Counted from the stretch's first letter, positions 10,734 through 35,782 are shown. The stretch is 35,782 nucleotides of DNA from Candidatus Moraniibacteriota bacterium (GCA_037137555.1 JBAXKA010000003.1:1-35782), one strand, 5' to 3'. A program made the numbers and translations. Notes: generated by a model from the sequence alone, not told the origin.

Positions 10734-10967
10734 ATGTTTTCACTTTTAAAATTGGCTATTTGGATTTGTGGAGTGGCTGTTGTCAGTTATTTTGTGCTTA
10801 ATTTTTTTGGCTTTGAAATAAATCAAGAATATTTTAAGGCCAGCAAAATTGAATGTCAAAAAAAGATAGAAGAATGTAAGGGCAAGCTTATTCACAATGG
10901 CGTTGATGGAGCTAATTGTGATTTTAATTGTGCCGATCCAAAACTAATTATCAATAAAAAACCTTAA
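10734..10967 (+). CDS. Small membrane-anchored Cys-rich protein, hypothetical
   Basis: 77 aa with one N-terminal TM helix and then a Cys-containing tail. It heads the downstream same-strand glycosyltransferase genes. Confidence 0.45.
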   Translation: MFSLLKLAIWICGVAVVSYFVLNFFGFEINQEYFKASKIECQKKIEECKGKLIHNGVDGANCDFNCADPKLIINKKP

Positions 10968-10977
10968 GCAAATATCT

Positions 10978-11961
10978 ATGAAACTAATTGTCAACATCCC
11001 CGCTTATAATGAAGAAGAGAAAATTGGAGAAACAATTGCTCGCATCAGAAAAAGTTTTTCGGCTGATTTTTATTCTCAAGGCGAAGGCACTGCTATTTCG
11101 CAAAAGTTAATTCAAATAGTGGATGACGGATCAAGTGATAAAACTGTGTCTGTTGCAAAAACAGCCGGTGTGGATTTAATTGTTTCCTATAAACCCAATC
11201 GTCGCTTGGCTTATTCTTTCAAACGAGCAGTAGAAAATTCTTTGGAAAATGGAGCCGACATTATGGTTAATATTGATGCGGATGGTCAATTTGATCCCAA
11301 TGATATTCCCAAAATACTCTTGCCAATTCTTTCTGGACAATGCGACATGGTTATTGCTAGTCGGTTTGGAAAACATGAGGCTATTGGTATGCCAAAAATT
11401 AAATATCATCTCAATCGTTTTGCCGCCAAAATGATTGGCTTTTTTCTAAATTATCCCATTGATGATTTGACTTGTGGCTTTCGTGCTCATAATCGCGAAA
11501 CGCTTTTGCGACTCAATATTACTAATGTCAGTTTTACTTACACGCAAGAAACAATTATTGATGCTATCGGCAAAAATTTAAAGTTACAATGGATTCCCGT
11601 TAAGGTTCAATATTTCGCTGACCGAGAAAGTCGCATTGTGAAATCAGTTTGGAAATTTGTTTCTAATTCTGCAAAAATAATTTTGAAAGCAGTTCGCGAT
11701 GTTCGTCCCATGAAATTTTTTGGCGTGCCAGGTTTAACACTTGTTACGGCTTCGCTTTTAGTTTTCCTGCTTTTTCTTTTTCATTATTTCCAAACATTTC
11801 AAGTTACCACTTATCGCAATTATCTTTTCCTTTCTGTTATTTTGCTTTTCGTTGGTTCACAGTTGCTGATTTTCGCACTGATTGCCGATATGATTAAGAC
11901 CAACCGCAATCTCACCGAAGAACAAATGTATCTTTCAAAAAAAGACCGTCTTAAAAAGTAG
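10978..11961 (+). CDS. Glycosyltransferase family 2 (polyprenyl-phosphate glycosyltransferase, DPM1/GtrB/ArnC-like) with C-terminal TM helices
   Basis: NIPAYNEEEKI...VDDGSSDKT...NIDADGQFDP (GT-A DxD region) plus two C-terminal TM segments. Confidence 0.85.
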   Translation: MKLIVNIPAYNEEEKIGETIARIRKSFSADFYSQGEGTAISQKLIQIVDDGSSDKTVSVAKTAGVDLIVSYKPNRRLAYSFKRAVENSLENGADIMVNIDADGQFDPNDIPKILLPILSGQCDMVIASRFGKHEAIGMPKIKYHLNRFAAKMIGFFLNYPIDDLTCGFRAHNRETLLRLNITNVSFTYTQETIIDAIGKNLKLQWIPVKVQYFADRESRIVKSVWKFVSNSAKIILKAVRDVRPMKFFGVPGLTLVTASLLVFLLFLFHYFQTFQVTTYRNYLFLSVILLFVGSQLLIFALIADMIKTNRNLTEEQMYLSKKDRLKK

Positions 11962-11977
11962 TTTTTATATTATATTT

Positions 11978-13102
11978 ATGGCAAAAAAAACTCGCCTGCT
12001 TTTTATTTCTCGTGCCTATCCGCCGATTCTTGGCGGAATTGAAATGCAAAATTTTGGAATTGCCAAAGCACTTTCGGAAATAACACCCACAAAAATCATC
12101 GCTAATAAATATGGCAAAAAGTTTTTGCCAGTTTTTTTGCCTTGGATTATATTAAAAAGTTTATTTATTCTACCAAATTATGATGTAATTTTGTTTGGCG
12201 ATGGTGTTTTGGCGCCAGTTGGAATATTTTTAAAATGCTTTTATCCTAAAAAGAAATTCTTGTCTATTGTTCATGGATTGGATATTACTTTTGCTCACAA
12301 GAAATCACTACTGGGAAAAATTTATAGAGCTATTAATATTCCTGCTCTCAAAAAACTCGATAAATTAATTATGGTTGGCAACGAAACAATTAACCAAGCC
12401 ATTAAGTTTGATATTCCAAAAGAAAAATGCGTTTTTATTCCCAATGGCCTTGATCTTTCCCAAAAAGTTAAGTTATCCGAACGAAAAGAGCTAGCAGATT
12501 TACTAAAAATAGATTTAGCTAATAAAAAAATTATTTTTCGTGGTGGCAGATTCGTAAAGCATAAAGGCTTGGAATGGTTTATCAGAAATGTAATGCCAAA
12601 ACTGCCGGAAAATTATATTCTAGTGGCTGCTGGTGGCGTTGTGGCAAATAAAACTGTCGGTGATGAAAATTATTATCCTAAATGTCTCAAGGCCATAAAA
12701 GATTTAAAGCTGGAAAATCGCATCAAACTGTTTCCCAATTTAGCTGAAAGCAAAATGCTAATACTATTTAACACTGTGGATATTTATATTTCTCCTAACA
12801 TTAAAGTTCCTGGATCAATGGAAGGTTTTGGCATCACCGCGATTGAAGGTGGCGGTTGTGGTTGTGTTGTGCTGGCTTCTAATCTCGAAGGATTAAAAGA
12901 TGCGATTATCGATGGCAAAAATGGATTTTTAGTTGAGCCCGGCAATGCTAATGCTTGGACGATGAAAATAAAAGAATTACTTGAAGATGATTCTTTCCGA
13001 GCAGATTTTGGCAAAAAAGCACAAACATTTGTAACGGAAAATTTCGCTTGGGAAAAAATTTCCCAAAAATATCTCGAGGAAATCGAAAAAACATTATGCT
13101 AG
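11978..13102 (+). CDS. Glycosyltransferase family 4 (GT-B)
   Basis: 374 aa. SMEGFGITAIEGGGCGCVVLASNLEGLKDAIIDGKNGFLV matches the GT4 EX7E region. Confidence 0.85.
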   Translation: MAKKTRLLFISRAYPPILGGIEMQNFGIAKALSEITPTKIIANKYGKKFLPVFLPWIILKSLFILPNYDVILFGDGVLAPVGIFLKCFYPKKKFLSIVHGLDITFAHKKSLLGKIYRAINIPALKKLDKLIMVGNETINQAIKFDIPKEKCVFIPNGLDLSQKVKLSERKELADLLKIDLANKKIIFRGGRFVKHKGLEWFIRNVMPKLPENYILVAAGGVVANKTVGDENYYPKCLKAIKDLKLENRIKLFPNLAESKMLILFNTVDIYISPNIKVPGSMEGFGITAIEGGGCGCVVLASNLEGLKDAIIDGKNGFLVEPGNANAWTMKIKELLEDDSFRADFGKKAQTFVTENFAWEKISQKYLEEIEKTLC

Positions 13103-15012
13103 AATTTATTCAATCACAAATTATTTTTTATCTCACAATCACGCTAGTGCTTTTTGTGCCAGGCTATTTTATGCTTTTGGCTTTTTTCGGCAAAGAGAAA
13201 TTAAGCTCGCTAGAAAGAGTTATTCTTTCTAGTAGTCTAAGTATTCTTATTACAGATTTTTTAATGCTTTTGTTATCTCGGGTTGGCATAATTTTTACAA
13301 GAAATTCGCTAATTTTAACACTTATACTTTTTAGTTTTTGCTGTTTTATTGTTTATAGAAAAAGATTTAAAAAATCACCAGCAATCGTTGATAAAAATTC
13401 GCTTTTTACTTTTTCCTCAAAGCAATTGTTATTTATTATGCTCGTTCTTTTTCTATCTTTCTTTCTTCGCTCGGCCTATTTGCAAAATTCATCACCACCC
13501 TCAAGCACTGACCTTGGTCATCATATGTATTGGTCAAAACTTTTTTCCGAAACAGGTAAAATTCAAAACTACACACAAAGCGATATCATCAAAGAAAATG
13601 AAATTTATCAAATTGATTCTCCCCGCCCAATCAGTGATTTCGTAATCGGCGAACATCTAATTTTTTCTGCCATCAATCTTATCTCTGGTGCCAACTTTAT
13701 TTCTGCCTTTCCTATTCTCGTGCTTTTTTATATCAATATTTTCACTTTGCTGGCAATATTTATTTTATCTTTGCGTTTATTTGAAAATAATCCACAAAAT
13801 AAAAACATAGCAATTTTCGTGCTACTTTTTTGCGGAGCAATTTTCGCAATCGATCCACCACAAGCTAAATTTATTGGTGGCGGTGTGGTGGGAAATATTA
13901 TCGGAAATTTGCTCATGCCCATCACTTTTTATTTTTACATTCGCTTTTTGCGAGAACGAGTTACGCCGTTTTTATTTTTCGCCCTATTCCTTTCAATGGG
14001 ACTTTTCTATACACATCATTTAACAGCTTTAATTTTTCTCTTAACTTTTGCTATTTTTATTTTGCTTGCACTATTTTTTAATTTTCATGCAACAAAAAAA
14101 ATTCTGCTTGGCGAAATAAAATTATTGCGTTCACCACTCCTAATAACTTTTTTTCTTTTTGTGTTTATCTTTGTTTTTAGTATTTACACTCCGACTTATC
14201 TCAAAAATAGTGCCATAAACACCGTCGTAGGTGCCACAAAAAAAATCGAACACACAGGATTATCCCTCTTGCAATTCAGAAATATTCTCGGAGAAGCTCG
14301 TTTTGCACTTGGATCTTTGGGATTTATTTTATTTTTATTTTTTTACAAAAAAAATGACTTTAAATATTCGTTTTTACTTTTGCTTAGCTGGACATCCATT
14401 ATCACAATCATTTCTCTGGCACCAAATTTAATCAAGCTCTCCATTCCCTCTGGTCGTGTAGCTAATTATGGAATTTATCCTTTTGCCCTAATTAGTGCCT
14501 TTGTATTTGTGTCTATTTTTACACAAAAAAAATTCAATAATAAACTAATTATTAGTGCTTTTATATTAATTTTTATTTTTACTTTCATTAGTGGCTTCGA
14601 TGGTAATGTAGATTATTTTAAGAAAAATACTACAAATAAAAATGCTTGGCAAACAATTCAGACTGGAAACTACCTTGCCTCAAAAATGTCTTCCACTGAT
14701 TTTCTCGCTTCTGATCATGTTTATTTAATTGCCGATTCGTGGCTAAAATTATTTTTCATGCGTGATTATTATTTTCCCAGTTACCGAGCAAACTTTGAAC
14801 GCTATGAAAATGGTATTGATAAACATGAATTTTGCACGCGAGATATGATTTCCAGTCCCGATGGAGAACTTGGAAAGAAATGTTTTTCCGATTTAGGCAC
14901 GAATTTTGTCATGGTGGACAAGGCCATGGATAGCATGCAATTTCAAAAATTAAATAATTTTTGGCAAATTTATTCTAATGATAAAATCAATGTCTATTAT
15001 CGCAAAAAATAA
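13096..15012 (+). CDS. Large polytopic membrane protein, GT-C-like glycosyltransferase (putative)
   Basis: About 638 aa from the ATG at 13096 (MLEFIQSQ...), which overlaps the upstream stop as ATGCTAG. The track's TTG at 13048 would overlap the GT4 gene by 55 nt. More than 12 hydrophobic helices and a C-terminal soluble domain. Confidence 0.6.
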   Translation: MLEFIQSQIIFYLTITLVLFVPGYFMLLAFFGKEKLSSLERVILSSSLSILITDFLMLLLSRVGIIFTRNSLILTLILFSFCCFIVYRKRFKKSPAIVDKNSLFTFSSKQLLFIMLVLFLSFFLRSAYLQNSSPPSSTDLGHHMYWSKLFSETGKIQNYTQSDIIKENEIYQIDSPRPISDFVIGEHLIFSAINLISGANFISAFPILVLFYINIFTLLAIFILSLRLFENNPQNKNIAIFVLLFCGAIFAIDPPQAKFIGGGVVGNIIGNLLMPITFYFYIRFLRERVTPFLFFALFLSMGLFYTHHLTALIFLLTFAIFILLALFFNFHATKKILLGEIKLLRSPLLITFFLFVFIFVFSIYTPTYLKNSAINTVVGATKKIEHTGLSLLQFRNILGEARFALGSLGFILFLFFYKKNDFKYSFLLLLSWTSIITIISLAPNLIKLSIPSGRVANYGIYPFALISAFVFVSIFTQKKFNNKLIISAFILIFIFTFISGFDGNVDYFKKNTTNKNAWQTIQTGNYLASKMSSTDFLASDHVYLIADSWLKLFFMRDYYFPSYRANFERYENGIDKHEFCTRDMISSPDGELGKKCFSDLGTNFVMVDKAMDSMQFQKLNNFWQIYSNDKINVYYRKK

Positions 15013-30101: not shown

Positions 30102-30917
30102 TTATTCTAGTGGACTTTTAATTTTCCTTAACATCGGATTAGTCACTTTCGTATAAATCTGGGTTGTTCTAATGTTAGCATGCCCTAGCAATTCTTGCAC
30201 GAAACGAACATCTACGCCATTTTCTAACAAATGCGTTGCAAAACTATGACGCAAAGAATGAAATGTCGCCTCTTTTTTAATTCCCGCTTTTTTGAGTGCA
30301 GTTTCAAAAACTTTTTGTGCAGTTCTTTCGGTTAATTTTCCACCGCGTTCACTAGCGAAAATATAATCATTGAGTTTTTTGTTTGCAATTAATTTTTCAA
30401 CATCACCAATTAGTTTTTCCGGCAAAAGTGTTATCCGATCTTTATTTCTTTTAGCGTCTTTAATGTGAATCGTCAATTCCGCCAAACAAACATCTTTAAC
30501 TTTCAAATTAATAATCTCACTCACCCGCAAACCACCAGAATAAGCCAAAGCAATCATCAAATTATGTTTTTTATTATTAATTACTAGCAATATTTTTTCA
30601 ATTTCAGCGCGAGAAAGCACAATCGGTAACTTGCTTGGAGTCTTGGCAAAGCGCACATCAATTTTTCCCCGAAATTTCAAAACATTCCAGCAGAAGAAGT
30701 TAATCGCTTGCAAATTCTGATTAGACATCTGCGATGATTTCCCCTCATCTATTTTTGACAAAATATACTGCTTAATAAAATCCACATCAACAATTTCAAA
30801 ATTATTCTGTTTAGCTTTTAAATAATTAGTAACACAATAAGTATATGCACTGATAGTTTTTGGACTATATTTTCTCAATCGCAATTCATCATTTAGTTTT
30901 TTTAAGTAAAAATCCAT
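30102..30917 (-). CDS. Tyrosine site-specific recombinase, integron-integrase-like but lacking the IntI-specific insertion
   Basis: 271 aa. R (GGLRVSE), HSLRHSFATH (HxxR) and LLGHANIRTTQIYTKV (H, Y). SAM-like N-terminal domain (YSPKTISAYTYCVTNYL) and a ...KSPLE C-terminus. It is divergent from the cassette array. Confidence 0.85.
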   Translation of the reverse strand: MDFYLKKLNDELRLRKYSPKTISAYTYCVTNYLKAKQNNFEIVDVDFIKQYILSKIDEGKSSQMSNQNLQAINFFCWNVLKFRGKIDVRFAKTPSKLPIVLSRAEIEKILLVINNKKHNLMIALAYSGGLRVSEIINLKVKDVCLAELTIHIKDAKRNKDRITLLPEKLIGDVEKLIANKKLNDYIFASERGGKLTERTAQKVFETALKKAGIKKEATFHSLRHSFATHLLENGVDVRFVQELLGHANIRTTQIYTKVTNPMLRKIKSPLE

Positions 30918-30925
30918 TTATTTAT

Positions 30926-30954
30926 TTGACACATTATTACAATTTGAGTATAAT
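30926..30954 (+). promoter_or_regulatory. Pc-like cassette promoter, perfect sigma70 consensus
   Basis: TTGACA (30926-31), a 17-nt spacer, then TATAAT (30949-54). It points into attI and the cassette array. Confidence 0.65.
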
Positions 30955-30957
30955 TAA

Positions 30958-30986
30958 ATCATACAGAATATTCACAAAAATAGCAA
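30958..30986 (-). promoter_or_regulatory. Candidate recombinase promoter (Pint-like), face-to-face with Pc
   Basis: On the minus strand: TTGCTA (30986-81), a 17-nt spacer, then TATGAT (30963-58), about 40 nt upstream of the recombinase ATG (30917). Confidence 0.45.
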
Positions 30987-30998
30987 TATTATGCATGC

Positions 30999-31037
30999 TA
31001 TCTGAAAACACTTCGGATATAAACGAGTTATCTGAAA
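30999..31037 (+). other. attI-like site: two direct TATCTGAAA boxes; inferred crossover G|TT at 31027/31028
   Basis: TATCTGAAA occurs at 30999-31007 and at 31029-31037. The second box is part of GTTATCTG (31027-34), the exact reverse complement of cassette 1's inverse core CAGATAAC (32349-56). Confidence 0.65.
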
Positions 31038-31139
31038 TTTGCTTTTTCTTTTCGCCTATCGGCGACGCATTTCTGTAATGAATTAATTGAATTTATTTAT
31101 TTTAAAAGGGGGTATAAGGAAGAAAACTTTATTAATATT

Positions 31140-32222
31140 TTGAATACAAATATGGAAAAATTCTCACCAGAATTAGTACAAGCGCAAACTGAGGCTCTTG
31201 ATATTCAAAAAAAAGCAAAAGAGGAGAAAGAAAAGAAAGGAGAAGTCGGAAGTTTAAGCAACGAAGATTATGAGAATGCTTGCCTGCCCCGCGTTGAAAG
31301 TTATGAGAAATTTTTGGAGGAAAATACAAAACTAGAATCCTTCGTTGATCACATTGAGCAAAACTCCCCAAATGGCGAAATAAATATATACAGTCCTGAA
31401 TTTTGGTATTCCTATCAGAAATTTATTGAAACTGTTTGGACAAAAGAAGGATTGGCACAATTAAACAGTAAGGACTACGAGGATTTTGAAGATTATAGAC
31501 ATGATTCCAATAAAATGCGAAAACCGATTGATCATGTTTTTTCTAACGGTGCATCTATTTTCAGGGGTAACGAACATTTCAATAGAATAAAACAGCGTTC
31601 TCTTTTGAATACTTTAAATAAAAATGGCATATCTACTGAAAACCTGCAAACCATAAAAGATTCATTTGCACATTATTATCGTAGCGATGGCGGCTATGGA
31701 CCAAAAAATATTAGCAAAAGTGCCTTGGAGCAATCGTACTTACAACGAATTGAGGCAGTCAAAAAATTGAACCAAAGTCAAGAACTATCGAAAATAACCG
31801 AAATCTGGGATGAATACGGATTACTTGATTCTCTATCTAGCGAGGTCAGCACATGTTTTGGCGGGCGCAACGAAACGCCAATTATAAGAAAGATAAGAGA
31901 GAAGCACAAAAATTCTTTTAAGGAAAAAAAGTTTAAAGAAATTGAGTTAGCTATAGTTGAAACAATTACCTTAAACGGACTAAAGGATAGCTTTTTATTA
32001 ACAAAAGAGTATGACAAATTAATTGAAATAGAGAAAAAAGACCCAAATTTAATAAAATCAGCTATTGCTGGAACATCCGCCCTCACCTTTGTTGTACTTA
32101 CTTCCAATATAGTCTCAACAGTAGTTGGAGACGCTTACGCATACACCCCAATAGGTGCAGTTCCAAATATTGATAGTATTTCTCGCGAGATGAAAGAGTT
32201 TTGTTGCGACGTAGAAGAGTAA
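31140..32222 (+). CDS. Cassette 1 ORF: hypothetical protein with C-terminal TM helix
   Basis: 360-aa ORF (TTG in the track; first ATG at 31152, MEKFSPEL...). The N-terminus is charged and the C-terminus has a hydrophobic segment, SAIAGTSALTFVVLTSNIVSTVVG. No motif recognised. Confidence 0.6.
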   Translation: MNTNMEKFSPELVQAQTEALDIQKKAKEEKEKKGEVGSLSNEDYENACLPRVESYEKFLEENTKLESFVDHIEQNSPNGEINIYSPEFWYSYQKFIETVWTKEGLAQLNSKDYEDFEDYRHDSNKMRKPIDHVFSNGASIFRGNEHFNRIKQRSLLNTLNKNGISTENLQTIKDSFAHYYRSDGGYGPKNISKSALEQSYLQRIEAVKKLNQSQELSKITEIWDEYGLLDSLSSEVSTCFGGRNETPIIRKIREKHKNSFKEKKFKEIELAIVETITLNGLKDSFLLTKEYDKLIEIEKKDPNLIKSAIAGTSALTFVVLTSNIVSTVVGDAYAYTPIGAVPNIDSISREMKEFCCDVEE

Positions 32223-32228
32223 TAAGGA

Positions 32229-32281
32229 GTCTTTGTTTCTGGGCATTCACCCCTTAATCCCCTCTGCCCAAAAACAAAGAC
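32229..32281 (+). other. Stem-loop with conserved C-rich loop after the cassette 1 ORF (homologue of 8473-8527)
   Basis: GTCTTTGTTTCTGGGC (32229-44) pairs with GCCCAAAAACAAAGAC (32266-81) at 15/16 bp. The loop is ATTCACCCCTTAATCCCCTCT. The stem sequence differs from the 8.5-kb copy while pairing is kept. Confidence 0.7.
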
Positions 32282-32348
32282 AAAATTCAATTAATTCATT
32301 ACAGAAATACTATTCCTCTGCTGAGGAATGAAAAGAAAAAGCAAACAT

Positions 32349-32437
32349 CAGATAACACGGCATATCTGGTTACGGCTTTTTACAAAAGCCTCCACCCAAA
32401 TTGCTACGCAACTTCAGATATGCCGAAACGTTAGCTG
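32349..32437 (+). other. attC-like site 1 (89 bp)
   Basis: R'' CAGATAAC; P1 GGCATATCTG (32359-68) pairs with CAGATATGCC (32415-24); P2 GGCTTTT/AAAAGCC; conserved CCACCCAAATT (32392-402); R' GTTAGCTG (32430-37). Confidence 0.75.
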
Positions 32438-33815
32438 AAATAAATTTTTATCTTTGTAGTAATTTCAAGTTCTGTGCGTTGATCAAAGACGAAAATTTGA
32501 TTTTTTAAATTAAAAGTTTTTTCCGCTTCGCGGATTATTTGGGGGCAATTTTATTTTTTATTTTAAATACAATATGATGAACAAACAAATCAACACCGCT
32601 TTGGCGATTGCGGTAATAATCATAATCGCTGGAATTGCGGGCGGAACAATTTATACAAACATTGCGAATAACAATCCGGCCACAATTATTCCTGTAATCA
32701 ATAAAACTCAACAAAACAAAGTTATTAGCAAATCTTCAGATGATATTGCTATAGGCAAGTCATGTGATGCTCGTAATTTAAAATCCTACAACGGTGGCGG
32801 AGAAATTGCAGCCACAAAAGGTTTACAATGTTATATGTACGACGACCTTTCTGACAGAATGCTTAACAATGGCAAGTGGATTTATCCGAGCGGCAAGGAA
32901 ACGGTTCGCAAGGGCGTTTGGGTTTATCCGAATCATATGAGCATACCGATATTCTTAGCCCAAGAAAAACCTTCCTTGTTTGATACGGTTTCAATAAATG
33001 ACCTTACACAAAACTGGAAGTTATACGATAATTCCAACGGTAATTATAGTTTTAAGTTTCCGAAACAATGGGAAGTAAAAAAAGACGCTTCAAATGCAAA
33101 CCAATTGACAATAGAAAAAATAAATACGACCGAAGCAAATACTATATTCGCAACAATCACATATTATCCGAATGCTAAATTCGAAACTACAGATGATTAT
33201 CAAAATATTAACGAAGCTCCAGATGATTGGCTTGTGCCTGACAATTCTACTGACACATTCATCCTTACTCGCCATTTTGATTTAAATGGCGCTACTGCAC
33301 TCTTAGTCGAAAGAATGAATAATTTTGACTTGGGTGGAAGTTCTTATGGCGAAACAATTTTTGTCACTAAGCCAAATTCATATTTTACGATTGAATATAC
33401 AAAATATCAGGACGCCGATATTGATTTGCCAGTAGAGATGTTAATTAAAACCTTACGGTTTAAATAACATCTTATAAAAAAATAAGGAAGAAAAATAAAA
33501 AATAAAATTGCCCCCAAATAATCGTTTTGCCATTCGGCAAAACAAAAACTTTTAATTTAAAAAATCAAATTTTCTTTACGATAAGCAAAGTTTATACTGT
33601 TAAAGACGAAGATAAAAATTTACATCAGCTAACACGGAGTAAACGGTTCAGAAATTTTTCAATATTAATAATTAGAGGAGTAAAAAATTTCTTCACCCAA
33701 ATTCGTTTTCCTTAGTCAGTGCCATTATCAAGATTAGTGCATTTAATATAATTCCGTTAAGATAACAAAGTTTAATCAATTAAGTCGGAAAACGAACTTC
33801 GTTTACTCCGATACG
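32431..33815 (+). mobile_element. Gene cassette 2
   Basis: Opens TTAGCTG and ends at G of GTTATGTG. The IR arms are 32430-32564 and 33492-33633, including perfect 31-bp (32491-521/33544-74) and 32-bp (32533-64/33492-523) blocks. Confidence 0.75.
32574..33467 (+). CDS. Cassette 2 ORF: secreted/membrane-anchored hypothetical protein
   Basis: 297 aa. N-terminal signal-anchor (ALAIAVIIIIAGIAGGTIY) and then a soluble domain. No motif recognised. Confidence 0.65.
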   Translation: MMNKQINTALAIAVIIIIAGIAGGTIYTNIANNNPATIIPVINKTQQNKVISKSSDDIAIGKSCDARNLKSYNGGGEIAATKGLQCYMYDDLSDRMLNNGKWIYPSGKETVRKGVWVYPNHMSIPIFLAQEKPSLFDTVSINDLTQNWKLYDNSNGNYSFKFPKQWEVKKDASNANQLTIEKINTTEANTIFATITYYPNAKFETTDDYQNINEAPDDWLVPDNSTDTFILTRHFDLNGATALLVERMNNFDLGGSSYGETIFVTKPNSYFTIEYTKYQDADIDLPVEMLIKTLRFK

Positions 33816-33822
33816 TTATGTG
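33626..33822 (+). other. attC-like site 2 (197 bp)
   Basis: R'' CAGCTAAC; P1 GGAGTAAACG (33636-45) pairs with CGTTTACTCC (33800-09); P2 33650-59/33683-92; conserved TCACCCAAATT (33693-703); P3 CGTTTTCC (33704-11) pairs with GGAAAACG (33787-94); R' GTTATGTG (33815-22). Confidence 0.75.
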
Positions 33823-34957
33823 AAATACCCAGAAATTTCTTTATTCATTTTTAAGATTTTTTTGGCGAATGCACGGGTCGAATAACTCAGATATAAATAA
33901 TTAAAATTAATTTTAAAAAACAAAGTATGAAAAACAAAAGAGGAAACGTTGCCGTAATTGCGCTTATCATCGTTATTGTGGCAATTACAACAGGCGTAAT
34001 CACTTGGCTTATCGCGACAAAAACACAAGCGCCAGTTCAGCAGGCAGTTGTAACTCAACCTGCGCCAGTTGCAAAAACACAGCCAGTAGTTCAATCTACC
34101 ACGCCAACTGCACAGTCAACACCAGCTAGCGATGTGAGTAAACAGGGCATTAAAGAATATAAATCAGGGAATACATTCAGTTTTAATTATCCTTCTCAAG
34201 TTTGTGATCCTGAAAGTAAAAAATGTTATCCGATTGTGTTGTCTGAAGATAAATCAGTAATCACACTAAATGCTTCAGAAGGTGGTTTATTTAAGATTTA
34301 TTATGGTACAAATATTACTGATGATAAATCAGCTAATAATTTCTTACAAACCACATTGAAGAACGGACTATGCAAGATTGATACAACTGAAACTAATATG
34401 CTACAAGGAACAACGATTAAAAATGTTTTCTTAGATGGAGGTTGTTCTCTTTATGGTCCTGCATATGAAAAATATTCTTCTGCTCATCCGGATGCAATTG
34501 GCTTAGCTGGAAAAAATAGGGCTTATTGGGCAACTGATAGCAAGGAAATGATTGTCTATGTTCTTGGTCAGGGAGGTGGTTGTTCATTTCTTGATTGTGA
34601 ATTGGAAGGAAAAATATCAGAAAGTATTAACCTTGGTGGAATCAATGTATTTGATAAATCTATGAGTGGAATTTAAAAACAGTGTCGCAAAAGAAATAAT
34701 TTTTTGAATTCATAAATGCAATTCGCCAAAAAATACATTAAGGAGGAAGAAATTTCTGGGTACATCACATAACAGCCCATATCTGGCTACAGGAAATTGA
34801 CGCTATTGAAAACAATATTGAGTGTCAATTTCCCTCCGCCCAAATTTTCATCCCTTAGTTTTGATGAAGGTTTAGGTGGAGTTCATCAAAAAATATATCA
34901 GCCTATAATCAAAGTCTATCCTATAAAACGGGATGAAAACTTCAGATATGGGCAACG
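33816..34957 (+). mobile_element. Gene cassette 3
   Basis: Opens TTATGTG and ends at G of GTTAGGCG. The IR arms are 33815-33872 and 34718-34773, with a perfect 16-bp block at 33826-41/34747-62. Confidence 0.75.
33927..34676 (+). CDS. Cassette 3 ORF: membrane-anchored extracytoplasmic protein with P/T/Q/V-rich linker
   Basis: 249 aa. N-terminal TM (VAVIALIIVIVAITTGVITWLIA), the linker QAPVQQAVVTQPAPVAKTQPVVQSTTPTAQSTPA, and a Cys-containing globular domain. Confidence 0.65.
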   Translation: MKNKRGNVAVIALIIVIVAITTGVITWLIATKTQAPVQQAVVTQPAPVAKTQPVVQSTTPTAQSTPASDVSKQGIKEYKSGNTFSFNYPSQVCDPESKKCYPIVLSEDKSVITLNASEGGLFKIYYGTNITDDKSANNFLQTTLKNGLCKIDTTETNMLQGTTIKNVFLDGGCSLYGPAYEKYSSAHPDAIGLAGKNRAYWATDSKEMIVYVLGQGGGCSFLDCELEGKISESINLGGINVFDKSMSGI

Positions 34958-34964
34958 TTAGGCG
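34766..34964 (+). other. attC-like site 3 (199 bp)
   Basis: R'' CACATAAC; P1 CCCATATCTG (34776-85) pairs with CAGATATGGG (34943-52); P2 AGGAAATTGAC (34791-801) pairs with GTCAATTTCC (34824-33); conserved CCGCCCAAATT (34836-46); P3 TTTCATCCC (34846-54) pairs with GGGATGAAA (34930-38); R' GTTAGGCG (34957-64). Confidence 0.75.
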
Positions 34965-35072
34965 AAAAAACTAAAAATTTCCTCTCTATTTTTGAAAAGA
35001 ATTTTTGGCAATTTTGCTCGGTCGATAACTCGGTATATAATTAAGATAAGTTTAACAAATTAAAAAAAAATT

Positions 35073-35627
35073 ATGAAAAAAGTATTAGCAATAAGTTCGG
35101 TGTTGCTTGGAGTCGTCTTTTTGGCTGGGTGTGGTCAACAGCCGGTGAGTCAAACGCAGCCAACAACGCCAGCTCCCATAGTGAAACAGCCAGCAACTAC
35201 TCCTCCGGTCGCAACTCAACCAGCGCCAACAACTCCAGCCGTCACTCAAAATTACATTGAAGTAAAAGAATTGGGATTCAAGATTCCCGTTGATGCCTCA
35301 AGCGCAAATGAGATAACTTACAAAATTACACAAGTCACAAAAGACAGTCCAACTCCTGGCGTGTACTTTTCAACCAAGGAGCTAAACTCAATGAGTAAGG
35401 ATTGCGAAGAAGGATCGATTGGGGCAATTTCAAAAGTGTCTGGCAAAGTATCCACAGATCCTAATTCAGAAAATTTCATGCCAGGAGAAATAAAACAACT
35501 CCAAGGTTTTTCACTGGTATTTCAGACTCCTCAAGCCCCTTGTCACTCCGGCGACAACTCTCTGGATAGAAAATTTATGCAAATCCTTGAAACTGGATTT
35601 AAAAATGCGGTTCTACTTGGTCAGTAA
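35073..35627 (+). CDS. Cassette 4 ORF: lipoprotein with P/T/Q-rich linker
   Basis: 184 aa. Signal peptide with lipobox (VFLAGC|GQQ), the linker QPTTPAPIVKQPATTPPVATQPAPTTPAV, and then a globular domain. Confidence 0.7.
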   Translation: MKKVLAISSVLLGVVFLAGCGQQPVSQTQPTTPAPIVKQPATTPPVATQPAPTTPAVTQNYIEVKELGFKIPVDASSANEITYKITQVTKDSPTPGVYFSTKELNSMSKDCEEGSIGAISKVSGKVSTDPNSENFMPGEIKQLQGFSLVFQTPQAPCHSGDNSLDRKFMQILETGFKNAVLLGQ

Positions 35628-35674
35628 ATTGCCAAAAATTCTTTATCATTAAGAATGGAAATTTTTAGTTTCAT

Positions 35675-35782
35675 CGCCTAACAACGCATATCTGGCTACA
35701 GGAAAATCACTCAAATATATTCAAAGGATGTGATTTTCCCTCCGCCCAAATTTTCATCCCTTAGTTTTGATGAAGGTTTAGG
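35675..35782 (+). other. attC-like site 4 (partial)
   Basis: R'' CGCCTAAC (35675-82), the reverse complement of the cassette 4 opening GTTAGGCG; P1 5' strand GCATATCTG; P2 AGGAAAATCAC/GTGATTTTCC (covaries with site 3). The rest is near-identical to site 3 up to the window edge. Confidence 0.7.

Follow-up and report, generated by a model that had tools for sequence, protein, structure and literature searches.

A Xer-type recombinase beside gene cassettes with long self-complementary arms: a candidate integron-like gene-capture platform in Patescibacteria

We analysed a stretch of 35,782 nucleotides (the window) from a Candidatus Moraniibacteriota bacterium (GCA_037137555.1, JBAXKA010000003.1:1-35782), which carries near its end a tyrosine recombinase gene and an array of four small gene cassettes. 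The reading we favour, with a probability of roughly 0.55, is that this locus is an integron-like gene-capture platform of a Patescibacteria (candidate phyla radiation, CPR) bacterium, run by a Xer-type recombinase. That recombinase, which lacks the IntI-specific domain, would be accompanied by a promoter facing the other way, an attI resembling dif, and an array of cassettes with hairpin sites of attC type between them. Each cassette would further carry a palindromic scaffold that is split in the array, rejoined in an excised circle, and there locks the recombination site in its folded form. Evidence for this reading includes the long inverted arms bracketing every cassette gene, which are a family-wide, covarying feature limited to such arrays.

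The end-to-end complementarity of each window cassette was first noticed in an earlier annotation made from the sequence alone (the first-pass annotation), which held that it extends beyond the 8-bp recombination core in all four cassettes. An inverted-repeat scan of positions 30900-35782 reproduced this, as did gapped alignments in which each 5' untranslated region (UTR) was set against the reverse-complemented 3' UTR of the same cassette, with perfect 8-bp cores at 31027-34/32349-56, 32430-37/33626-33, 33815-22/34766-73 and 34957-64/35675-82. A conserved mismatch does follow the core, but it is shorter than the 3 nt (AAA opposite CAT) originally described: the first A pairs with the T of CAT, giving 9 bp and a 2-nt mismatch (AA opposite CA). 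Beyond the core plus 3 nt, perfect runs of 16, 16 and 15 nt were found in cassettes 1, 3 and 4, in line with the 15-16 bp reported, while the first block of cassette 2 measured 14 bp rather than about 12 bp. The further perfect blocks of 26 nt (31069-94/32283-308), 31 nt (32491-521/33544-74) and 32 nt (32533-64/33492-523) were recovered as given. The distal block of cassette 4 begins inside the stop codon (TAA, 35625-27) as claimed, but is 19 nt long (34996-35014/35626-44), not 17.

On the plus strand, which carries the whole array, the 5' arm of cassette 1 (31035-31094) consists of AAA, the 16-nt block, a GCCtatcGGC hairpin and the 26-nt block, and its 3' arm (32283-32348) of the 26-nt block, a ATTCCTCtgctGAGGAAT hairpin, the 16-nt block and CAT. 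The 5' arm of cassette 2 (32438-32564) contains perfect 14-, 31- and 32-nt blocks and two arm-specific hairpins, its 3' arm lying at 33492-33625. In cassette 3 the 5' arm (33823-33873) is made of the 16-nt block, an internal loop and a TTTTTTGGCGAAT block, with the 3' arm at 34717-34765. The arms of these three cassettes were found by scan, alignment and folding, and those of cassette 4, with 15-nt and 19-nt blocks (34965-35014) and a 3' arm beginning inside the stop codon (35626-35674), by scan and alignment. The window's own cassettes had arm scores of 45-122, whereas non-self pairs averaged 22, with their 95th percentile at 31.

When the circularly permuted cassette junctions were folded as single-stranded DNA (ssDNA), one long rod was predicted on both strands. 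From its tip the rod comprises the attC-like site, the R box, a small internal loop, the first block, a four-way junction formed with two arm-specific hairpins, and the distal blocks; the small hairpins pointed out in the first-pass annotation were recovered in these minimum-energy folds. The predicted energy was -19 to -40 kcal/mol for the site alone and -72 to -111 kcal/mol with the arms, which add 35-80 kcal/mol, and shuffling of the 5' arm gave z = -8 to -25 for the junction energy. The earlier proposal that the arms would lengthen the attC-type hairpin of an excised circle into a long branched rod is therefore supported in silico. The predicted pairing probability of the R box was 0.96-0.99 in the circle junction, compared with 0.75, 0.15 and 0.26 in the array context, because there the following cassette supplies the R' half and its flank is not complementary. 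On our preferred reading, the 3' UTR, attC-like site and 5' UTR of each cassette form a single imperfect palindrome of ~320-490 nt.

Related loci were gathered around homologous recombinases from assemblies, species-representative genomes and metagenomes. Nearly every Patescibacteria locus with enough upstream DNA had a divergent, same-strand run of small genes, and chaining of attI and the detected sites yielded 73 non-identical cassettes from 45 loci. The arm score omitted the first 11 nt, a core match allowed at most one mismatch, and 5,256 non-self pairs of a 5' arm with a 3' arm served as controls. Arms in additional cassettes, whose absence the first-pass annotation had named as an outcome that would count against it, were present in 45 of the 48 core-matched cassettes, all scoring above the 95th percentile of the controls (median for the core-matched set 54.5, against 21), and the median perfect run after the core plus 3 nt was 14 nt. 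The 5' UTRs had a median length of 116 nt and the arms spanned 60-150 nt.

Covariation was measured on an ungapped alignment of 45 distinct cassettes, each represented by 18 nt, R'', an artificial loop, R' and 18 nt. Scored on the expected structure, 94% of cells were paired, compared with 61% after shuffling and at most 49% when the partner was slid. The covariation score was 0.79, compared with 0.18 for shuffled alignments (none of 500 shuffles reached the observed value) and at most 0.27 with a slid partner. All 15 first-block pairs had changed on both sides, with 91% of cells paired, which bears out the claim that pairing is kept despite divergence, and G-U pairs were very few. Within the three arm families described below, 18 of 54, 27 of 53 and 21 of 59 paired columns showed at least two pair identities; since a third to half of well-paired columns vary in this way, the arms diverge together.

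Arm sequences recur in many genomes and are AT-rich, features that would also be expected of dispersed repeat copies of the miniature inverted-repeat transposable element (MITE) or repetitive extragenic palindrome (REP) type, or of chance in AT-rich sequence. In the DNA compared, however, the recurrence is seen only in arrays beside this recombinase, at the same position and in the same orientation relative to the core. BLAST searches with the eight window arms gave 46 matches in 240 kb of array DNA from other genomes, compared with 2 in 426 kb of non-array flanks and 3 low-complexity matches in the other 30.9 kb of the window, so that the dispersed-repeat objection raised with the original claim does not apply. 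Chance is excluded by the non-self and shuffle controls, and we consider an origin in dispersed repeats or chance extremely improbable.

The block sequences had been described as unrelated between cassettes. This holds within the window but not across arrays, where a few arm families are common to cassettes with unrelated open reading frames (ORFs). Family A (TAAATTTTTATCTT ... GAAAATTTGATTTT) takes in window cassette 2, family B (... TTTTTGGCAAT ...) cassettes 3 and 4, and family C, which has a T-rich block, a GGGCTATCGCCC-type hairpin and then ... AAAAAGAAT ... TTTTGTTTTT, cassette 1. No BLASTP similarity was detected between cargo ORFs within one arm family. The window cargo consists of ORFs of 360 aa with no family match (cassette 1, 31140-32222), 297 aa (cassette 2, 32574-33467), 249 aa with an N-terminal membrane anchor (cassette 3, 33927-34676) and 184 aa with a lipoprotein-like signal (cassette 4, 35073-35627), all on the plus strand.

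Pairwise comparisons, given in cassette positions, locate the breakpoints. Between window cassette 2 and the first cassette of the related locus L004, homology covers 1-139 on the 5' side (87%) and 1040-1212 on the 3' side (83%) of an ORF at 145-1038, and the proteins are unrelated (E = 20). The corresponding 5' and 3' stretches are 8-94 and 1257-1376 around an ORF at 114-1196 for cassette 1 and the first cassette of L057, and 1-118 and 906-1145 around an ORF at 113-862 for cassette 3 and the first cassette of L052. For cassette 4 and the second cassette of L037 they are 1-267, running into a shared signal peptide, and 669-825, with the ORF at 117-671. In these last three pairs the 5' homology stops a few bases from the start codon, except that with L037 it continues into a related N-terminal region, and the 3' homology begins at the stop codon or within ~60 nt after it. 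The same scaffolds were seen at different array positions and in different genomes. Few homologous cargo pairs turned up in a search of the 73 cassettes for the same cargo in different scaffolds, and reverse-oriented cargo was limited to 3 small cases among 48 cassettes. The arms, together with the R box, belong to reusable scaffolds holding unrelated ORFs placed almost exactly from start to stop codon. Arm family also correlates, imperfectly, with the type of attC-like site.

These observations bear on how the arms arose. The suggestion in the first-pass annotation that one arm is copied from the other by templated fold-back, cassette by cassette, has to be abandoned because the arms are common to unrelated ORFs and the homology ends at the ORF boundaries. 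The same shared families and breakpoints, together with the existence of ORF-less mini-cassettes (described below), would fit a view in which the arms have no function of their own, ORFs being loaded into a pre-existing palindromic carrier that is kept perfect by mismatch correction or gene conversion in the folded single-stranded state. That 729 helix positions were matched and only 23 were not, though homologous arms differ at a third to half of columns, also favours it. However, all cassettes retain the AA/CA mismatch of 2 nt, the mismatches in the outer L box and the hairpins specific to each arm, indicating that blind homogenisation is not acting, and selection would in any case be needed to keep 100-nt UTRs in very small genomes. 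We therefore hold a functionless by-product to be quite unlikely.

In family B, a 5'-side element consisting of GGTCGAATAACTC and then a TATAAT-like stretch lies just inside the arms (33876-33898 and 35020-35041 in the window; also in L023, L026, L037 and L052). It has no partner in the 3' arm and could serve as a promoter or leader for the cassette. A 3' UTR hairpin directly after the stop codon is common to many cassettes whose ORFs are unrelated; it lies at 32229-32281 in the window and occurs also in L004, L039, L052, L054, L057, L118 and L132. Its stem varies and covaries, and its conserved loop, TTCACCCCTTAnCCCCTCT, is complementary to a G-rich, Shine-Dalgarno-like AGAGGGGTAA stretch of 5' UTRs.

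The sites between cassettes share one layout: R'' (nnnnnAAC, usually CnnnTAAC), 1 nt, L'' ... L', 3-4 nt, R' (GTTnnnnn) and then GAAAT. Spacers are asymmetric at every site (1 nt vs 3-4 nt), some L' boxes have a bulged G, and AAC/GTT was invariant in 45 of 45 aligned sequences. Site 1 (32349-32437) reads R'' CAGATAAC, a 1-nt spacer, L'' ... L', a 4-nt spacer and R' GTTAGCTG; site 2 lies at 33626-33822, site 3 at 34766-34964, and site 4 (35675-35782) is incomplete at the window end, all being on the plus strand. A site finder based on AAC/GTT and L-box pairing, with the arms not used, was run on 247 kb of DNA upstream of recombinase genes. It detected 41 sites there on the strand that carries the cassettes and 0 on the other, while 872 kb of other DNA contained 11. 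The features by which attC sites are recognised, namely R''-L''...L'-R' inverted repeats, AAC/GTT, a variable middle and a strand-marking asymmetry, are all present.

The element GAAAT of the right arm reappears as ACTTC in L' and as ACTTC ... GAAAT in attI, that is, as one element in two orientations, and R'' has ACATC. The conserved 2-nt mismatch is thus probably due to R'' having ACATC where the other boxes have ACTTC. As GAAAT recurs as a recombinase-arm element, the AAA belongs to the recombinase-binding arm, within a conserved motif, GTTnnnnnGAAAT, that attI has too, and not to a spacer. The central regions would measure 8 bp between L' and R', 5 bp between R'' and L'' and 6 bp in attI. 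Given the unequal spacers and mismatched outer arm bases, the inverted halves do not amount to a pair of equivalent duplex sites, but would be understandable as parts of a single folded site.

Directly after the first inner hairpin of every attC-like site stands a conserved motif that appears to be unpaired, CTCCRCCCAAATT, with the core ACCCAAATT; it lies at 32390-32402, 33691-33703, 34834-34846 and 35740-35752 in the window. It is present whatever the site length (89-199 nt) or arm family, occurs in all related attC-like sites, and in some copies contains an anti-Shine-Dalgarno-like CCTCC.

The attI-like site (ACTTCGGATAT-AAACGA-GTTATCTGAAAT, 31010-31038, plus strand) has dif-like architecture and is kept at the same distance from the recombinase gene in ~50 related loci, with the consensus ...ACTTCGnATATAAAnGA|GTTnnnnnGAAAT. 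Comparison of cassette pairs showed that cassette-specific sequence begins at the GTT of attI, which places the likely crossover at G|TT, 31027/31028. A consensus scan and pattern match found a putative Pc-like promoter, TTGACA-17-TATAAT, at 30926-30954 on the plus strand; it matches the sigma-70 consensus at 12 of 12 positions and points into the array. An attI beside the integrase gene, with a promoter reading into the array, is the arrangement by which integrons are recognised. Within cassettes, promoter consensus matches were no more numerous than in shuffles, the sole standout being the 12/12 site beside attI.

Several further features surround attI. A weaker, divergent promoter-like site for the recombinase (30986-30958, minus strand) overlaps a conserved AATATTCnCAAA ... 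GCAATATT element, which may be an operator. An inverted copy of the attI left arm lies directly upstream of it (30998-31020 in the window), ATATCCGAA-AACAC-TTCGGATAT in most of the ~50 loci, giving three consecutive arm-like boxes; this copy could be an accessory binding site, or a hairpin forming the attI L box in single-stranded form. GC skew, examined for a replication terminus at attI, tracks gene orientation only. Many contigs (e.g. L016, L019, L033, L038 and L042) stop within 100-300 bp of the recombinase gene on its upstream side, either at attI or in the first cassette. Assemblers seem to break there, so that the arrays are probably under-represented in genome bins.

The promoter also raises the question of whether the arms act in RNA. 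As the first-pass annotation had suggested, the 5' and 3' UTRs could pair in array transcripts. In polycistronic transcripts the resulting duplex might be cut by RNase III into end-protected monocistronic mRNAs, much like the processing stalks around 16S and 23S rRNA, or might gate translation. Besides the perfect sigma-70 consensus reading into the array, this would fit the perfect Watson-Crick blocks of 19-32 bp, the size that RNase III needs, and the scarcity of G-U pairs, which suits its preferences. It would also fit the extent of pairing, which reaches ~10 nt from the start codon and begins at or just after the stop codon, and the complementarity of the 3' UTR loop TTCACCCCTTAnCCCCTCT to the G-rich, Shine-Dalgarno-like stretch of the 5' UTR. 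A role in RNA alone, however, leaves unexplained why the first block prolongs the R-box helix from precisely the outer edge of that box, and why the arms correlate with attC type. Moreover, G-U pairs were not enriched over A-C mismatches among the few isolated mismatches (23 in 752 helix positions), and an Rfam scan of the array at E ≤ 1 gave no family match. We judge an RNA role as the explanation of the arms to be unlikely. A tRNA scan gave no hits.

The recombinase, a 271-aa protein encoded at 30102-30917 on the minus strand, is of the XerA or 'Cand' type. It matches the Pfam families Phage_integrase and SAM_4, and its best NCBIfam model is the archaeal-type XerA (XerA_Arch), with 210.7 bits against a cut-off of 220. 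The integron-integrase profiles TIGR02249 and PRK15417 align in two pieces that skip ~70 profile positions, with scores below the cut-off. In PDB comparisons the protein aligns over its full length with XerA (5hxy, 4a8e), and with the Vibrio integron integrase VchIntIA (2a3v) in two stretches only. BLASTP against IntI1, using an IntI1 sequence verified as 100% identical to annotated intI1, gave 29% identity and a ~40-residue gap opposite IntI1 196-250, which is the IntI-specific domain. By profiles, structures and BLASTP alike this domain is missing, and the idea of a canonical integron does not survive: the recombinase is XerA-like.

The IntI family is distinguished by this further domain, located around patch III (Messier & Roy 2001, as quoted in PMC9668308; PMC4792948) and considered particular to the single-strand pathway (PMC4792948). 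In the archaeal integrons described to date, IntI has the extra domain (PMC9668308), and a published 'Cand' subgroup comprises Xer-related recombinases of candidate phyla that are assumed to stand in for Xer (PMC8138268). Homologues of the window recombinase numbered more than 7,000 at E ≤ 1e-20 and are unusually conserved; the best 120 were 72-93% identical and 266-298 aa long, and the named relatives include Wolfebacteria, Moranbacteria and other Patescibacteria. No comparable attI was found upstream of distant relatives (~40% identity) in DPANN archaea and Bacteroidota, and from the sequences compared the platform appears to be confined to the Patescibacteria clade.

The favoured model, that of a scaffold split by insertion and rejoined in the circle, can be set out as follows. 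The crossover point (G|TT) would sit inside the stem of the palindrome and not at its base, so that insertion splits the palindrome: the outer part of one side would become the 5' UTR and the remainder would stay behind the ORF. In the chromosome the halves would then lie ~1 kb apart and be harmless, as a contiguous palindrome of such length would be hazardous. In the excised circle the halves would rejoin, the arms would flank the attC-like site and the cassette's own core would complete a perfect R box. Clamped in this way by 60-150 extra bp, the site would be expected to fold as a hairpin or cruciform mimicking duplex dif. Such a substrate, close to duplex dif, is what a Xer-like enzyme lacking the IntI domain would be expected to require, the folded attP of phage CTX being a parallel. 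Within the array, pairing between the R box and its neighbour has mismatches and folding is predicted to be poor, which would bias the system to capture and retention over loss. Recombination through folded single strands, the crossover position, and a fold-stabilising and directional role of the arms are what we infer from sequence and modelling.

The arms might instead act within the array, pairing across the ORF in ssDNA at the replication fork, joining the flanking sites, defining the unit and promoting its excision. The arms are indeed specific to their own cassette and not to the neighbouring site, own-core pairing is perfect where neighbour pairing is mismatched, and L boxes are similar at many sites, so that a composite site could form. 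However, an R'' paired with its own 5' core would withdraw both from the two attC-like hairpins that excision would need, and at least ~1 kb of exposed single strand would be required. Such action in the array seems to us very unlikely.

Several points weigh against the model of a palindrome rejoined in the circle or limit it. Excision, circles, strand choice and crossover are deduced, and the folding was computed in silico on isolated single strands. Non-matching cores were found in 25 of the 73 chained cassettes, with strong arms in only 10 of these 25; they are probably missed sites or intervening ORF-less units. Isolated mismatches in the helices were few (23 in 752 positions) and of G.T type in 3 top-strand vs 8 bottom-strand cases, a non-significant difference (p = 0.23). 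Transcription from the Pc-like promoter would take in the arms of the first cassette at least, so a role in RNA is conceivable. The arm-specific hairpins, with their conserved four-way junctions, are not predicted by a simple stem-stabiliser, and crossover only at R' does not predict the arm-site mosaic of window cassette 2 (site 33626-33822) and the first cassette of L004, which have the arms and R'' in common but lose homology ~15 nt inside the site, with different L boxes and a different middle. Lastly, the comparison with canonical integrons covers a single class 1 array.

The system resembles integrons in many respects. A tyrosine recombinase gene faces away from an array whose cassettes mostly hold one ORF each and share a strand, attI, with its crossover at G|TT, has a promoter beside it, and the R''-L''...L'-R' sites have invariant AAC/GTT and asymmetric spacers. 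Further, the 5' end of each cassette is complementary to its own R'', homogeneous sites accompany unrelated cargo, and related arrays carry defence genes. Unlike in integrons, complementarity in the window extends 60-150 bp past R''/R', the crossover lies inside the stem, and a conserved scaffold flanks the ORF on either side. According to PMC4670013, a class 1 cassette comprises an ORF with a short 5' UTR and a 3' attC. In the class 1 control array (plasmid pJB12: aac(6')-Il, blaVIM-2, aac(3)-Ia, aac(6')-Ib4) the 5' UTRs were 11-31 nt and end pairing amounted to the 7-bp core plus ~4 nt. The window cassettes depart from this canonical pattern of short 5' UTRs and complementarity confined to attC.

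Phage CTX is said, in work attributed to Val et al. in 2005, to integrate its single-stranded genome via a folded attP hairpin mimicking dif. The window system shares with CTX and other integrative mobile elements exploiting Xer (IMEX) an enzyme of Xer type, a target built like dif, with a short centre between two inverted arms, an incoming site whose two inverted half-copies have to fold, and tandem accumulation at one site. The sequence and predicted folds indeed give an incoming site consisting of one folded strand with two dif-like halves in inverted orientation. Unlike IMEX, the window units are promoterless single-gene cassettes with no replication or phage functions, and the recombinase gene always adjoins the array.

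In the pdif modules of Acinetobacter plasmids, on which the literature includes PMC11705084 and PMC7399989, genes are bracketed by inverted XerC/XerD sites. These modules are alike in having genes in series between inverted copies of a Xer-type binding site, but the copies in the window differ in spacing by 2-3 nt and in outer arm bases, and are not two equivalent inverted 28-bp duplex XerC/XerD sites. Unequal spacing and mismatched outer arms rule out paired duplex pdif-like sites as a description of the intercassette sites. Long arm complementarity outside the sites is, to our knowledge, not a described feature of pdif modules. Long inverted repeats also bracket a functional unit in the processing stalks of rRNA operons, which flank 16S and 23S rRNA, and as the terminal inverted repeats of MITEs. 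Unlike those of MITEs, the window repeats lack transposase-type termini and target duplications, are contiguous with a tyrosine-recombinase core and are limited to arrays. In full-text searches aimed at CPR we found no description of cassette arrays or of extended cassette arms in these phyla in the searchable literature, an absence that is no proof of novelty.

Other units and cargo were noted in the related arrays. In ORF-less mini-cassettes R' and R'' are 33-80 nt apart, often with a CGCTTCGCT-type loop, and a GC-rich attC-like hairpin follows. They usually adjoin attI, but the Wolfebacteria locus L006 has three between ordinary cassettes (126-301, 1322-1497 and 2105-2280, reverse complement of the upstream DNA), and others occur in L009, L020, L028, L029, L043, L051, L154 and L163. 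The L006 unit at 1497-2105 (same orientation) has a 49-nt body, 6-bp arms and 567 nt between L'' and L' with an apparent reverse-strand ORF; this single case of cargo in the attC-like loop suggests that either end of the rod can carry genes. In L011 an identical 963-bp cassette plus site stands in tandem next to attI (122-1085 and 1085-2048, reverse complement of upstream DNA), consistent with a recent site-specific duplication or re-insertion.

Among the defence cargo of related arrays, one 3.7-kb cassette combines HaeIII-type restriction-modification with a Shedu SduA_C protein, and others hold HEPN/MNT pairs or a BpuJI-type system that has two methylases. Toxin-antitoxin-like genes are also carried, and some of the small genes in related loci encode RhuM. 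Defence cassettes lie at L001 123-3955 (reverse complement of upstream DNA), L004 2054-5915 and L013 8179-8800. This cargo parallels that of sedentary chromosomal integrons. Beside the L004 recombinase, the lepA gene (10824-13124) encodes 766 aa vs the usual ~595, with a PDDEXK_3 nuclease domain between two GTP_EFTU matches, which suggests an insertion, intein-like or a nested element.

The locus makes two questions about integrons testable, namely how cassettes are made and how single-strand, structure-specific recombination arose from Xer/dif. Models that add only a 3' site cannot produce a conserved non-gene part on both sides of the ORF with homology breaking at start and stop. The sequence comparisons point instead to cassette genesis by ORF loading into a reusable palindromic carrier. 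The Xer-like recombinase lacks a domain thought necessary for the integron pathway, yet adjoins arrays with attC-type sites, and integron-finding software keyed to the IntI domain would probably miss them. The long arms may be a structural substitute for that domain, and they suggest a simple directionality device, since the chromosome keeps the palindrome in two parts that are united only when the circle is free. More tentatively, and with the balance of probability against it, the system could be a 'proto-integron', in which a housekeeping-type Xer without the IntI domain mobilises rod-shaped palindromic carriers (arms plus attC-like site) via folded single strands, with genes loaded precisely from start to stop, possibly at either terminal loop. 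If true, this would show how integrons originated from Xer/dif, with cassettes made by loading a carrier and not by adding an attC 3' of a gene.

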